From NCBI GenBank assembly GCA_030599585.1, contig JAUVNS010000004.1, positions 96,001 through 160,000 on the forward strand: 64,000 nucleotides of DNA. Reading direction: 5' to 3'. Below the pieces are notes generated by a model. It made no database searches. It worked only from the letters and a program-made list of their open reading frames with translations, and was not told where the DNA came from. The translations under genes were made by a program, and so were the position numbers. The stretch comes from Promethearchaeota archaeon. Lineage in GTDB: Archaea > Asgardarchaeota > Lokiarchaeia > Sigyniarchaeales > SOKP01. Shown here piece after piece: positions 16,010 through 21,594 of the stretch; within the stretch, counting starts at the first letter, position 1; every line of letters begins with the position of its first letter.

Positions 16010-16267
16010 TTATTTTTTTCCGCCAGTACCATGCATACAGAAAAATCCGCCTTCTAGTTCGTACTTTGGAAATAATCCACAACCAAAGCAACTACAACCA
16101 TAATCCTTAACTTCGGACATTGGTTTTTCAGTTTTTCCACGGGAACAAAACAATGCATGTGGCTCAAATTCGTTTAATTTATTAGGTTTGAACGATGGAC
16201 AAGGACCACAGAATTTACGACATTCACTCATACTTTCCTCGTCATCGGGAACCGGTTTTGGAGTCAT
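16010..16267 (-). CDS. Small Cys-rich metal-binding protein (DUF2769-like)
   Basis: CxxxCxxCPSF...LFCSRGK...GCxCxxC...FFCxxG. Confidence 0.75.
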   Translation of the reverse strand: MTPKPVPDDEESMSECRKFCGPCPSFKPNKLNEFEPHALFCSRGKTEKPMSEVKDYGCSCFGCGLFPKYELEGGFFCMHGTGGKK

Positions 16268-16431: not shown

Positions 16432-16824
16432 TCATTCTAAAGCTAAATTTTGATTAAAAGTTGTTAAGTTATTCTTCAATTCTTCTTTAAATAGGTGGTA
16501 GAAGGTGAATTTCTGCTTTTTATATCCTTGAATTAACCCCACAGCAACTAACTTTCTTAAATGATGAGATATTGTTGATTGTGATTTATTCAATATCGTT
16601 TCTAACTCACAAACGCACCTATCTTGCTTTTTCAAGGCATTAATAATGATTAGTCGCTCTTTTGATGCAATTGCAGATGTAAATCTTTCAATAGCGTCTA
16701 AATTCTTATTCTCTTCCAACATTTTGCCCAATTTTAGTAACTTATCGAAATCAGGGTTTGAATCTGAACAATCTTTACAGTCACATAACATCTTTTTAAT
16801 TTCTTGAGCTCTTTTTTGTTTCAT
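16432..16824 (-). CDS. arsR: ArsR/SmtB metalloregulator
   Basis: CVCEL alpha3 As(III)-type site, SQSTISHHLRKL HTH and an extra N-terminal CxCxxC. Divergent from acr3. Confidence 0.88.
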   Translation of the reverse strand: MKQKRAQEIKKMLCDCKDCSDSNPDFDKLLKLGKMLEENKNLDAIERFTSAIASKERLIIINALKKQDRCVCELETILNKSQSTISHHLRKLVAVGLIQGYKKQKFTFYHLFKEELKNNLTTFNQNLALE

Positions 16825-17037: not shown

Positions 17038-18159
17038 TTGATGCTTATGGTTGAAGATGGTATTGAAAGTGAAGCAATAAATAATTTAGATAAATCAGAA
17101 GAAGCAAAACAAAAATCAAGAAAGATTAATTATTTCGAAAAGCTTCTTCCGATTTGGGTGGTACTATGTATCATCATTGGTATACTTCTCTCCCAATTTA
17201 TACCCGAATTAAGTCAAGCAATAAATTCTTTGCAAATTGGAGGTATTTCTATACCAATTGGAATTTGTTTGTTTTTAATGATGTACCCTGCGATGTTAAA
17301 TCTACAAGCATCAGAATTAAAAAAACTACGCAAAAACCCAAAACCTATAGTATTAACATTAATTTCTAATTGGCTCATTGCTCCTTTTGTGGGTTTGGCG
17401 ATGATTAATATATTTCTACCTGGTACAACCGAAGATATACAACAATTAAAAGTTGCGATAATTTTACTCTCAAGTTCGCCTTGTACAGCTATGGTGTTAG
17501 TGTGGGGATGGATGGCAAAAGGTAATCAAGAACAAAATGTAGTTAATACAAGCTTAAATACGATTACTATAATCTTTTTGTACGTAGGAATGGTTTCTTT
17601 ATTAACTAGCATTCAAAATATTCTCACGCCTGGGATTGTTGTTGATCCATGGTTGTTGTTAATCTCTTTAGTATTCTTCATTGGTATTCCGTTGTTATTA
17701 GGAATTGTAAGCAAGAGATTAATTATCACTTCGAAAGGATTATCGTGGTTTAATGATAGCTATAAACCATTTGTAGGAAAAATTTCAATTGTTGCTTTAT
17801 TGACAACTTTAGTGGTTTTGTTTTCCCTAAATGGCGATGTTCTTATAAATAATCCTGATTTGCTGCTACTAATCTCAATTCCACTCTTAGTAGGTTTTGT
17901 AATAGTGGTTGCTTACAACGTTTTTATTACTAAGATTTTTAAAATGAAGTATAAAGAAGCGATTATAACAATAATTATCGGCTCATCTAGTCACTTTGAA
18001 ATTGCTATCGCAACAGCCGTCGCAATGTATGGCGTTGGGTCCATAGCGGCTTTAGGAACTACAATGGGTTTATTTTGGGAAGTACCTGTTATGCTAGCAA
18101 TGGTATATCTTGGAAAATTCCTTGGGAAACGAGGATTTTGGAAATCTAATTCAAATTAA
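17038..18159 (+). CDS. acr3: Acr3 arsenite/antimonite efflux permease
   Basis: Motifs LMMYP, NWLIAPF, PCTAMVLVW, SSHFEIAIA and EVPVM. The start may be the ATG at 17041 or 17047. Confidence 0.93.
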   Translation: MMLMVEDGIESEAINNLDKSEEAKQKSRKINYFEKLLPIWVVLCIIIGILLSQFIPELSQAINSLQIGGISIPIGICLFLMMYPAMLNLQASELKKLRKNPKPIVLTLISNWLIAPFVGLAMINIFLPGTTEDIQQLKVAIILLSSSPCTAMVLVWGWMAKGNQEQNVVNTSLNTITIIFLYVGMVSLLTSIQNILTPGIVVDPWLLLISLVFFIGIPLLLGIVSKRLIITSKGLSWFNDSYKPFVGKISIVALLTTLVVLFSLNGDVLINNPDLLLLISIPLLVGFVIVVAYNVFITKIFKMKYKEAIITIIIGSSSHFEIAIATAVAMYGVGSIAALGTTMGLFWEVPVMLAMVYLGKFLGKRGFWKSNSN

Positions 18160-18187: not shown

Positions 18188-19864
18188 TTGATAATAATGG
18201 CAGTAGTGTATATGCGTAAACTCGAACAAGAACCAGATAGCTACGATTCTAAATTCACAGCACTTACAAAGGGAGTAAATTTAAGCGTTAGAGAATGGAT
18301 ACTTAATAAAACTGGTAATTCTCAATCAATTCTGGAGGTTGGATGTGGGACTGGAAGCCTCGCCTCTAAAATGGCGTTAAAAGGAAATGATGTTACTGCG
18401 ATAGATATAAATTTTCAAATGATAAATCACGCAATGCAGAATTTTCCTCCAGATTTAAAGGAAGGAACGCTCTTATACCAAACTGGATCATTTTCCAACA
18501 TGCCTGTAGAAGAAAGGTCTCAAGATTTAGTCATTAGTACGTTTATGCTTTCAGAACTTCGACCTTTTGAACAACAAATCTTCCTTAGAAATGTTTGGAA
18601 AGTATTAAAACCAAATGGAAGATTATTAATCGCAGCAGAATTTATTCCAGATGGTTTTTGGAAGCTAATCTTTAAAATAAAAAGATGGAGATATAAAAAG
18701 AAACTTAGGCGTCTTAAATTAAGGAGCACTTTTCTGCTAAAATGGTTCTTTAGATATATCGAACCAATTGGATTCAAAATCAAAGCAAAAGAAGACTGGA
18801 AACACGGAACAATTCAAGCTCTCGAACTGATAAAACATGACGATATAGAAATTAATGAACCAGGATATTATCAACCTAGCCCAAAACGATTCAAAGGGAT
18901 AATATCGCAGCTAAGAATATATCGTTGCATTTACACAGGCCAAATTGATCTCGTTCCAATCGATCCTGGTATTTACAAATCTGGTAATCCTACTGAATCT
19001 TCTCCTATAATAGTGACAGCTAATTATGAATTCACCTACATCAAAGTAATGAGAGATCTTAAAGGTATTGATGCATGGGTATTATGTGTTGATTCTAACG
19101 GAATTAATGTGTGGTGTGCTGCGAGAGGAAATGATTTTGGAAATAATCAACTAATCGAGGCTGTTGAAGCTACTGGTATTGAAAGATTAACTAATAAAAA
19201 AACATTAATTCTCCCACAATTATCTGCAGGAGGAGTAGCCACTCCAGAATTGCAGAAAAAATCTAATGATTTTTCTTTTAGAGTTGTTTATGGACCTGTT
19301 TGGTCTAAAGATTTACCCGAATATCTTGAAAAACGCCCTGCTCGAAAACCCGATAGAATGAAGCTTGCTAAATTCACTCTAAAACATCGATTTCGTGGTT
19401 TTATCACGCACACAACATTTCTATTAAGAAAGATTTTCATGTTACCTCTCATAAGTTTATTCGTTGTGTTTCTTATCCTTAACTCTCTTAATATAACGGC
19501 TAAATTATGGTGGGTTGGTGAATTATTACTCTGGATAGTTACAGCAAATTTCATCATAACTTTTACATATCCGATTGCAAATTTCACTCGTCGGTTTATT
19601 ATTAAGGGAATTTTCTTTGGGACTTTGAATGTTTTTATTTTGGGAATGTTCTCTTATTTATTTCATAATTCGATATTTTTCACACTTATGAACATTAGTT
19701 TTTTCTTTTGGATTTCATTTTTTTCAACAATGTCGTTAAGTGGGTATACAATGGCTACTAGCCCTAGTGAAATACAAGAAGAGTATCCCATTTTTAGTAT
19801 TTTAAATAAAGTTTTATTAACCATAAGTTTGATTTCATTAGTGATTGGAATCGTTTTTCTCTAA
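18188..19864 (+). CDS. Fusion of class I SAM-dependent methyltransferase, HgcA-like corrinoid-binding domain and C-terminal TM domain
   Basis: N-terminal ILEVGCGTG, AIDIN and LKPNGRL. Central PGIY..GNP...SPIIVTANY, GINVWCAARG (cap helix), LILPQL and YGPV..KDLPEYL. Four to five TM helices ending TMATSPS. Confidence 0.88.
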   Translation: MIIMAVVYMRKLEQEPDSYDSKFTALTKGVNLSVREWILNKTGNSQSILEVGCGTGSLASKMALKGNDVTAIDINFQMINHAMQNFPPDLKEGTLLYQTGSFSNMPVEERSQDLVISTFMLSELRPFEQQIFLRNVWKVLKPNGRLLIAAEFIPDGFWKLIFKIKRWRYKKKLRRLKLRSTFLLKWFFRYIEPIGFKIKAKEDWKHGTIQALELIKHDDIEINEPGYYQPSPKRFKGIISQLRIYRCIYTGQIDLVPIDPGIYKSGNPTESSPIIVTANYEFTYIKVMRDLKGIDAWVLCVDSNGINVWCAARGNDFGNNQLIEAVEATGIERLTNKKTLILPQLSAGGVATPELQKKSNDFSFRVVYGPVWSKDLPEYLEKRPARKPDRMKLAKFTLKHRFRGFITHTTFLLRKIFMLPLISLFVVFLILNSLNITAKLWWVGELLLWIVTANFIITFTYPIANFTRRFIIKGIFFGTLNVFILGMFSYLFHNSIFFTLMNISFFFWISFFSTMSLSGYTMATSPSEIQEEYPIFSILNKVLLTISLISLVIGIVFL

Positions 19865-19916
19865 TAAAAAATAATACAAAAATTAAAAAGAAATTGATAT
19901 TTAAGAGGTATGTATA

Positions 19917-20279
19917 ATGACTGAAGCAGAATTTAAAGCAAGTTTAAGTAAATTATCTATAAAGGATTTTAAAATATTTATAAATGAAAGCTTATGCAAC
20001 AAGTGTGGTTTATGTGCAGAAGTGTGTCCTTTTGGGCTTCCACAACAAACAGATTCCGGAAAATACGATATTAAAAATCATGAACTATGTACTGAATGTA
20101 GTGCTTGTAAGAGGAATTGCCCCGTAAATGCGATCATTATGAACGAAAAGAAGGGGTGCGGTTGTTTATGGAACGCTAGAGCAAACGCAAAAAATTCCAA
20201 ATCAGGAAATAAAGACATAAATAATTGTGGTTGTGGTCCAGAAAACGAAAGTGAAACAACTTCAAGTTGTTGCGGTTAA
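19917..20279 (+). CDS. HgcB-like 2[4Fe-4S] ferredoxin with a Cys-rich tail
   Basis: CNKCGLCAEVCP and CTECSACKRNCP, then GCGC, CGC and terminal SSCCG. Directly follows the HgcA-like gene. Confidence 0.85.
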   Translation: MTEAEFKASLSKLSIKDFKIFINESLCNKCGLCAEVCPFGLPQQTDSGKYDIKNHELCTECSACKRNCPVNAIIMNEKKGCGCLWNARANAKNSKSGNKDINNCGCGPENESETTSSCCG

Positions 20280-20331: not shown

Positions 20332-20790
20332 GTGGAAAAAATGGAAAAAGAAGAAATAAAAATATCGGTTAACGAAAACCAAAATAGTCAAATAAGTTTA
20401 GAGGAATCATGCTGCGGAACGTCAAATTCTTGTTGTGGTTCATCAGATTCTTGTTGTGAGGGTTCAACTTCAAAGGAATCGCCTAATACTCAAGAAATTA
20501 ATTTGAAAGAGACAGCAAATGTAGATACGAATAAAATATCTGTAGATGTATATGTTCCTCTAAACGCTTGCGAATGCGTTTGGTCTCAATTTATGAACCT
20601 TGTATTTTCGGCACTTAGCCCTTACATGAAACACATAAGGTTTGAAACAAAAGACTTAGACTCTGACGAAGCTCGAAAACTTAATTTAAATGGAAATTGC
20701 GTTGTCGTTGATGGTACAAAGAAATACATTACTTCATTCGCATTAAAGAAAGATTTACCTGTACTTCTAAAGGAAAAAGGGCTATTATAA
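20332..20790 (+). CDS. Cys-Cys-rich putative metallochaperone with thioredoxin-like C-terminal domain
   Basis: SCCGTSNSCCGSSDSCC in a low-complexity N-terminus, followed by VYVPLNACECVW and CVVVDG. Confidence 0.65.
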   Translation: MEKMEKEEIKISVNENQNSQISLEESCCGTSNSCCGSSDSCCEGSTSKESPNTQEINLKETANVDTNKISVDVYVPLNACECVWSQFMNLVFSALSPYMKHIRFETKDLDSDEARKLNLNGNCVVVDGTKKYITSFALKKDLPVLLKEKGLL

Positions 20791-20833
20791 AATTAAGTTG
20801 TTTATTTTTTTCTCTATAAAAAGGTGATTTTAG

Positions 20834-21304
20834 ATTAAAAAAATTAAATTAACAATTTTTGGACCTGAAAAAGAGCTCGCAAACGGAATTGAGTACGAAG
20901 TATCTATCGAGGAAGAAGGATCGATAATTGAAGCATTGGCTGCTATAGATAGACAGCTCCTTAACAACCCCAAGCTTTCACCGTTTCCATTGTATAAAGG
21001 ACTAATTAAGAGCTATCTCCAATTAATCTGGGACCCCCAAAAAAACGCTATTTACGAAGACTGTGCAAGTAATGCCTATGGGCCGAACAAAGAGTTTATG
21101 CCTCTTCTGGATGATGTAAACTTCAACCTTTATCAGAACAGCGATATAACTCTTATAGTCCACGCCGATTGATGAGCTGATAACATGAGAGAACGCTTAG
21201 ATTACGGTTCATTTAAAAGAGTAATCATGAAAAAATATGGAAAAGACCACGAAACTTTTGCTCAATACTTCATAATAAAATTAAAAAATCAAAAGCAGGG
21301 ATGA
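20834..21304 (+). CDS. Candidate selenoprotein with a beta-grasp-like pattern, ATT start and UGA-UGA at 21170-21175
   Basis: AGGTGA RBS at 20822-20827 and ATT at 20834 extend the track ORF by 34 codons (MKKIKLTIFGPEKELANGIEYEV...). Then HAD-TGA-TGA and 42 more sense codons to TGA 21302. A SECIS-like hairpin lies at 21301-21336. The minimal CDS is 20834-21172. Confidence 0.55.
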
Positions 21305-21363
21305 TATCTTTCAATAAACTTTAGTGGAAGATTGACAACAGGATTGCCTCCTATTTGCTTTGA
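21292..21363 (+). promoter_or_regulatory. Eukaryote/Lokiarchaeota-type SECIS-like element
   Basis: AUGAU (21301-05), stem AUCUUUCA (21306-13) paired with UGGAAGAU (21325-32), AAA at 21316-18 (11 nt after AUGA) and 3' core UGAC (21333-36). Possible lower helix AAAGCAGG/UUUGCUUU. A T9 tract follows. Confidence 0.6.
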
Positions 21364-21594
21364 ATTACTATTTTTTTTTAATTACATGAATAGAAAGAAT
21401 AACTCTAAATTTATACATGATTGAATTTTTAAATGATCCTTTAGGTTTCAAATACGCTATTTTCTCAAATCTCACTCAAAACATTTAAAAATTTCTAAGG
21501 AACATTAATCCCCAATTCTCTCAATTCATGAACTCAGTCGATGTGAGAAAAAAATAAAAAAAAAATTTATTTGAAAATTTATTTATTCAGGTTT

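Follow-up and report, generated by a model that had tools for sequence, protein, structure and literature searches.

The window analyzed here is a stretch of 64,000 nucleotides from a Promethearchaeota archaeon (GenBank assembly GCA_030599585.1, contig JAUVNS010000004.1), whose genome comprises 4.85 Mb at 32.6% GC, and all positions below are those of the window unless a contig is named. A gene predicted to encode two adjacent selenocysteine (Sec, U) residues closes an operon that contains arsR and acr3, a gene for a methyltransferase::HgcA-like protein, a ferredoxin gene and a gene for a CxC protein. The features of this operon and of the Sec-Sec gene are given below, and locus counts refer to 25 close loci (the source genome and 24 other genomes, at 56-94% identity).

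16432-16824, minus strand: arsR-family regulator, divergent from acr3 (PF01022, E 2e-16; 18 of 25 loci).
17038-18159, plus strand: acr3, for an arsenite efflux transporter, with no second copy found in the genome (TIGR00832, E 1e-81, 274.8 bits, just under the cut-off of 282.8; a single tblastn match; 18 of 25 loci).
18188-20279, plus strand: methyltransferase::HgcA-like corrinoid protein and 2x[4Fe-4S] HgcB-like ferredoxin, a variable operon insert (NF040863, NF043039, NF043040 and NF040864 all below their cut-offs; 7-8 of 25 loci).
20332-20790, plus strand: unannotated upstream neighbor with an invariant CxC, and with an N-terminal CC-rich linker in this clade only (directly upstream in 19 of 25 loci; no Pfam or PDB match).
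20823-20827, plus strand: ribosome-binding site GGTGA, from sequence (GGTGA or GTGA equally placed in most relatives).
20834-21169, plus strand: codons 1-112 from ATT, predicted MoaD/CysO/SAMP-type beta-grasp domain that contains insertions.
21170-21175, plus strand: tandem UGA-UGA, predicted Sec113-Sec114, in a low-confidence and probably flexible loop.
21176-21304, plus strand: predicted read-through helical tail of 42 codons, about 33 of them conserved, and the true stop TGA at 21302-21304.
21301-21335, plus strand: type I lokiSECIS, in which AUGA leads into a U.U plus an 8-bp stem; its A-rich loop is 11 nt long and closes with AG, and GA follows.
21338-21354, plus strand: second conserved hairpin of unknown role right after the SECIS (6 bp, 5-nt loop).

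The earlier note had described the surroundings as ars/hgc-like, which is typical of the source's archaeal family but does not extend to more distant ones. An ars-module gene lies within 1.5 kb at 29 of 35 further loci of that family and at 2 of 4 in family f4, but at 0 of 16 loci in families f2, f3, f5, f6 and f7, giving 2 of 20 outside the source's family overall; among those 16 loci, three stand beside an aldehyde:ferredoxin oxidoreductase (AOR) gene and two beside a cation-efflux gene, and unrelated genes are found there as well. The CxC and HgcA-like genes, which are tied to arsenic only by context, were counted as ars-module genes here, and loci of one family are not independent. The hgc-like pair is itself a variable part of the operon. 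In the source genome, the only acr3 and the only copy of the Sec-Sec family share one operon. A connection among ArsR, hgcAB and arsenic has been reported in Pseudodesulfovibrio (bioRxiv 10.1101/2022.10.17.512643). No clear ArsR operator palindrome was found; a T-rich tract and TATA-like run occupy 20786-20815 and, judged on sequence only, may uncouple the Sec-Sec gene from the operon. Elsewhere in the operon, NVWCAAR replaces the usual ..WCAAGK ending in the SAM methyltransferase::HgcA-like protein, the HgcB-like ferredoxin ends in CCG, and a Cys-rich DUF2769 protein is encoded downstream of arsR (16010-16267, minus strand; 3 of 25 loci).

The frame at 20834-21304 (plus strand) runs from ATT through 112 sense codons to TGA at 21170-21172 and TGA at 21173-21175, and then through 42 further sense codons to TGA at 21302-21304. 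The ATT start behind a ribosome-binding site that had been proposed for this gene holds, with 6 nt between GGTGA and ATT; initiation there is supported because an in-frame TAG abuts the ATT on its 5' side, no ATG, GTG or TTG occurs before codon 35, and five relatives carry an ATG at the homologous position. The 42-codon continuation is likewise found as previously described. An open frame of this length has a chance probability of about 0.02 at the local composition, so the single sequence does not prove read-through and the proof has to be comparative.

Both codons are TGA at all 25 close loci and are never TAA or TAG. Since TGA is the stop of only 36 of 216 other ORFs at the same loci, and the true stop of family members varies (TAA 55, TGA 21, TAG 9), the two UGAs are under selection as UGA. 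Beyond them, the homologous frame is kept for about 33 codons, with change of 0.27 at third positions against 0.12 at first and second positions. Homologues that end at this point with TAA or TAG, and a downstream frame without conservation, would each have counted against the proposal, and neither was seen at the close loci.

A SECIS-like hairpin had been placed about 130 nt after the UGAs. One is present: it begins 125 nt past the second UGA, with an AUGA that shares bases with the terminal stop. The lokiSECIS has been defined by an AUGA, a 9-bp stem, an 11-nt loop with 5' adenines and a terminal AG, and then GA, near the stop (PMC4989117), and the element at 21301-21335 meets every one of these criteria, the ninth pair being U.U. 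Across the 25 loci, 98% of its cells are paired and three pairs show double-sided changes; slid alignments drop to about 50% paired, and the relatedness of the sequences inflates the shuffle control. Because the plain folding energy of 21160-21400 is not above that of shuffled sequences (z = -0.73), support for the SECIS comes from motif and covariation and not from energy. Rfam returned no match to the SECIS or to the TGATGA region. A strict scan of the source genome gave nine lokiSECIS-like elements where two are expected, this gene's being one of them and those behind three VhuD genes and PrxL being among the others. The hairpin at 21338-21354 is conserved to a similar degree (95% paired, three pairs with double-sided changes, 25 loci) and may either belong to the recoding signal or serve as a terminator or stabilizer.

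The Sec machinery that such a gene would require, and whose absence the earlier note had named as a refutation, is present in the source genome. It includes SepSecS (E 1e-112), an EFSec-like protein (E 2e-68) and a PSTK-like protein (E 5e-45), the latter two scoring under the TIGR cut-offs, together with two SelD genes 3 kb apart, each with an in-frame TGA (contig C34:187468-191178; L027 and L028). A tRNA-Sec lies between the EFSec and SepSecS genes (contig C28:16776-16923, plus strand), with a UCA anticodon, a long variable arm and, after intron removal, a 9-bp acceptor stem. It was identified by hand, having been overlooked by Rfam and ARAGORN, and relaxed ARAGORN output was noise. Two introns split it, one of about 28 nt in the anticodon loop and one of 30 nt in the T loop, of which only a T-loop intron has been described for lokiarchaeial tRNA-Sec (PMC4989117). 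Other parts of the genome hold further Sec candidates. A second uncatalogued selenoprotein may be encoded by a 68-codon GTG ORF (C21:176537-176740, plus strand; L119:1501-1704) in which an in-frame TGA (A-U-G) lies between two hydrophobic stretches; this TGA is kept in 5 of 5 homologues and a SECIS is found in 4 of 5 (its own at C21:176757), with no Pfam match. Another candidate, ahead of a SECIS near C34 226786 (plus strand; L116), is a small ORF whose product would have a single hydrophobic helix and the sequence G-G-G-U-P-S-T-C, and a SECIS near C26 252454 (plus strand) stands behind a short CxxC..CxxC ORF ending in TGA-TAG, possibly a zinc finger with a C-terminal Sec.

A wider profile matched 138 of 161 genomes of Lokiarchaeia (about 86%), covering all seven archaeal families. 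The family was not found in 239 other Asgard genomes, 88 of which have SepSecS; only two weak matches appeared there, one of them a canonical ThiS/MoaD protein. Distant homologues, recovered by a full-library profile search, end in a PDAGC-like motif, and the two for which DNA was fetched both run on with TGA-TGA. The 91 members read from DNA fall into C-U-U (51), U-U (34, including this gene) and U-G-U-U (6) subtypes, and a looser scan gave a SECIS call in 82 of the 91. The tail measures 32-50 aa and is conserved in all 85 members examined. Several tandem paralogue pairs (L060, L086, L064 and L092) have a canonical SECIS call on the second gene only, which suggests that a single SECIS serves the four to five UGAs of both genes, as it does in HdrA-VhuD.

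The first UGA of this gene aligns without gaps to the Cys of C-U-U members. Cys-only homologues (P0188, P0190, P0201-P0204 and P0208), mostly on short contigs, also carry Cys at the first UGA and continue through the tail in one frame, and a SECIS is absent from the two that were checked. Among the homologues found, none has a Cys counterpart of the second UGA or Cys-Cys at both positions, so that the prediction of Cys aligned to the UGAs is borne out for the first and not for the second. Two distant full-length homologues, P0200 and P0209, have neither Cys nor Sec at the motif. In a phylogenetic tree, the U-U and U-G-U-U subtypes each come out as a single, well-supported group; both groups belong to one archaeal family and stand against a C-U-U background. 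The tree has a midpoint root only and its bootstrap barely converged; on this tree, the number of Sec residues was raised repeatedly, from C-U-U to U-U and from C-U-U to U-G-U-U, with one origin each. A search of 69 members against NCBIfam (June 2026) hit no family, Pfam gave no consistent family, and a PDB sequence search gave no match. The proposal of a new selenoprotein family is thus upheld, with members throughout the class, no Pfam or NCBIfam family and no entry in the 2024 or 2026 inventories.

An AlphaFold model of the 156-aa read-through product, built from 69 sequences with Cys in place of Sec, reached a pLDDT of 90.1 and a pTM of 0.86; it supersedes a weak earlier model from the 25 close sequences (pLDDT 63). 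Blocks of the first domain have pLDDT 91-97, residues 111-120 around the UGAs 64, and residues 121-140 of the tail 94-95. The best structural matches were CysO (Z 8.1, rmsd 3.1 A over 84 residues), the transcobalamin beta domain (7.8), SAMP1 (7.6) and MoaD-related proteins (7.2 and 6.7), with Urm1 also among the best; these Z values are middling and tied. Profile alignment with hhalign to an Asgard ThiS-family (ThiS/MoaD) protein gave E 2e-6 and 89.6%. A MoaD/ubiquitin-like fold with the UGAs at the position of the Gly-Gly end had been inferred from the sequence, and the model agrees on both points: the terminal Gly of CysO (residue 90) and of Escherichia coli MoaD (residue 81) superpose on residue 114, and in the hhalign register the carrier's PPVG before Gly-Gly falls on the four residues before the UGAs. 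The tail, which was searched only within the full model, found no structural match.

Taken together, the invariant TGA-TGA, the coding-type conservation beyond it, the covarying SECIS, the Sec machinery, the Cys-only homologues without SECIS and the confident full-length model lead us to predict, with high confidence, that the gene encodes a 156-aa selenoprotein in which both adjacent UGAs are read as Sec. There is no direct evidence of selenium incorporation or of expression, and double Sec insertion is inferred; we regard the identity as firm and the function as open. The ribosome would start at the ATT at 20834, the lokiSECIS in the 3' UTR would direct Sec-tRNA into both UGAs, and translation would end at 21302. 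A sulfur-carrier-type beta-grasp domain would thereby have exchanged its Gly-Gly end for a genetically encoded Sec-Sec, with a helical tail beyond it, and the two selenols are expected on an exposed loop because the pair sits between the beta-grasp domain and the tail.

As(III) and Hg(II) favor vicinal thiolates and selenolates. The vicinal selenols of this protein, as deprotonated soft nucleophiles, could trap trivalent arsenic, methyl-arsenite or Hg(II) and either hold the metal(loid) or hand it to the co-encoded CxC protein, to Acr3 or to the corrinoid methyl-transfer module, so that the Sec-Sec protein would act, under the control of ArsR, as a buffer or a metallochaperone of the ArsD type. 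The repeated rise in Sec count is consistent with a site that draws on several chalcogen ligands, and organometal systems show recurrent CU/CC motifs (bioRxiv 10.1101/2022.07.06.499078). No metal-binding data exist and this function is inferred; taken jointly with the identity, a trap or hand-over protein for As(III) or Hg in an Acr3 operon is the likeliest of the readings but still a tentative one, quite possible but short of probable. Because none of the 16 loci in five families lies near an ars gene and some stand beside AOR or cation-efflux genes, the ancestral role may be wider than arsenic.

Other functions are conceivable for the same Sec-Sec protein. Mammalian thioredoxin reductase ends in a Cys-Sec pair within a G-C-U-G tail, which G-C-U-U resembles, and the pair could be a redox switch (selenol/diselenide or selenenyl-sulfide) that scavenges oxidants or supplies electrons to the CxC protein, ArsC or the corrinoid protein. 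Some members have ArsC-type and Thioredoxin_3 genes as neighbors, and near-universal presence in the class would suit a housekeeping role, but no reductase partner is conserved alongside, and the three chalcogens of C-U-U and U-G-U-U are more than a two-electron switch needs. Vicinal diselenides, moreover, have a very low potential and are hard to re-reduce. Even with most prokaryotic selenoproteins being redox proteins (PMC13188914), we consider a switch possible but unlikely. More doubtful still is a sulfur or selenium carrier or store, in which the encoded selenol replaces the thiocarboxylate and carries persulfide or perselenide to SelD, Mo/W-pterin or Fe-S assembly, or in which the tail is clipped to expose Sec. 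The structural matches to CysO, SAMP1, MoaD and Urm1 speak for such a role, as do the AOR genes at three loci and the neighbors of two Cys-only homologues, NifU_N for one and a molybdate/tungstate-type ABC binding protein for the other. The family nevertheless has no Gly-Gly, the U-U subtype lacks any Gly there, and the tail is predicted to be well folded. E1, JAMM protease and MoaE, and the partners ThiG and CysM, were not recognized among the recurrent neighbors, not all of which are annotated, and partners may be unlinked. The roughly 90 Sec-using Asgard genomes outside the class that lack the family indicate that it is not core Sec machinery.

The reading of the UGAs themselves can also be questioned. 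The earlier note had left undecided whether the product was 113 aa ending in Sec or 156 aa with Sec-Sec, and the longer form is favored. Decoding of two UGAs in tandem should, by inference, be inefficient, and only the first might be decoded, or the site might be a selenium-sensing stop with a mainly truncated product, the tail then being a separate 38-aa gene from the ATG at 21185. This Met at +5 is invariant in the U-U subtype, and the bases before it, GAGCTGAT, differ from an archaeal ribosome-binding site by a single mismatch. The bases resembling that site, however, vary synonymously as Ala-Asp codons, and the homologous tail is present even though an ATG in the first five codons past the UGAs occurs in only 4 of 53 C-U-U and U-G-U-U members; because the other 49 have none, the tail is not a separate gene. 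The single-frame tail of the Cys-only homologues and the pTM of the joined chain point the same way. We rejected the small downstream gene on these grounds and hold this whole alternative to be improbable, although truncated by-products are likely under selenium shortage. Least credible, and very improbable indeed, is a reading without selenium, in which the UGAs are ordinary stops, TGATGA is kept as a box C-like RNA motif, or UGA means Trp. Gene callers do stop there or write WW, and in database entries the protein either terminates at the first UGA or has WW at this point; TGATGA also resembles a box C motif. A UGA=Trp code was rejected, since TGA is the normal stop of 403 of 2916 long ORFs in the source genome and the position aligns with Cys and not Trp, as was a box C/D motif, since the adjacent CUGA is not invariant and Rfam gives no match. 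The SECIS, furthermore, accompanies the UGA forms and is absent from the two Cys-only forms checked.

We think it likely that the Sec-Sec protein represents a class-wide, ancestral Lokiarchaeial family in which the thiocarboxylate end of a carrier was swapped for two or three encoded Sec residues, making it the first prokaryotic case of consecutive Sec, with a selenium-based metalloid or chalcogen chemistry of its own; on the same reading it would be, as far as we found, the first selenoprotein on a MoaD/SAMP scaffold. If true, it is among the commonest Lokiarchaeial selenoproteins and yet was overlooked by both surveys. The Asgard selenoproteome, thought to comprise seven families, would gain one present in most Lokiarchaeial genomes, homology-only surveys would be seen to miss common selenoproteins, and the ubiquitin/sulfur-carrier fold would be tied to selenium chemistry. 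The finding also suggests that the handling of arsenic or mercury in sediments includes a step that depends on selenium. The 2024 Asgard survey relied on homology to known families and listed seven (PMC11227280), and the 2026 inventory of 119 prokaryotic selenoprotein families has no UU motif or beta-grasp carrier in its Table 1 (PMC13188914). We found no paper on the family, with most subscription journals outside our reach.

Among known proteins, the sulfur carriers MoaD, ThiS, CysO, SAMP1 and Urm1 share the beta-grasp fold (Z 7-8, rmsd about 3 A over 81-89 residues) and place their terminal Gly-Gly where the UGAs lie. In contrast to them, this family has U-U, C-U or G-U in place of Gly-Gly, no free C terminus there, a helical tail, about 25 extra residues in the domain and no PF02597 match, and we rejected membership in the MoaD/SAMP carriers because it is built alike but has no Gly-Gly and no free end. 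ArsD, SaoC/SaoL and the HgcA/HgcB CU selenoproteins resemble it in being small, with vicinal chalcogens, in metalloid or organometal operons (bioRxiv 10.1101/2022.07.06.499078), and the ars-operon location shared with ArsD holds for the close loci and not for distant families. Those proteins differ in having another fold and no sequence similarity, with CC or CU instead of UU and a bacterial SECIS. Membership in ArsD itself was rejected on the beta-grasp fold, where ArsD has a thioredoxin-like fold with a Cys-Cys-Cys site for As(III), and on the lack of an ArsD model match. The Lokiarchaeial selenoproteins with a lokiSECIS, namely SelD, HdrA, VhuD/FrhD, VhuU/FrhA, PrxL, AhpF-N-like and DsbA-like proteins (PMC4989117, PMC11227280), have in common with it a type I lokiSECIS by the stop, an AUGA overlapping the stop and several UGAs per SECIS; the protein is unrelated to them, and none of the seven has adjacent Sec. 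The only precedent for consecutive Sec that we found in the literature is an algal PDI_e selenoprotein with a GUGUU motif, a predicted Sec-Sec (PMC7539508). The two are alike in having consecutive Sec under a eukaryote-type SECIS, and the U-G-U-U subtype of this family matches the algal spacing, but PDI_e is a eukaryotic protein of thioredoxin fold whereas this family is archaeal and beta-grasp, so that their shared motif is convergent.
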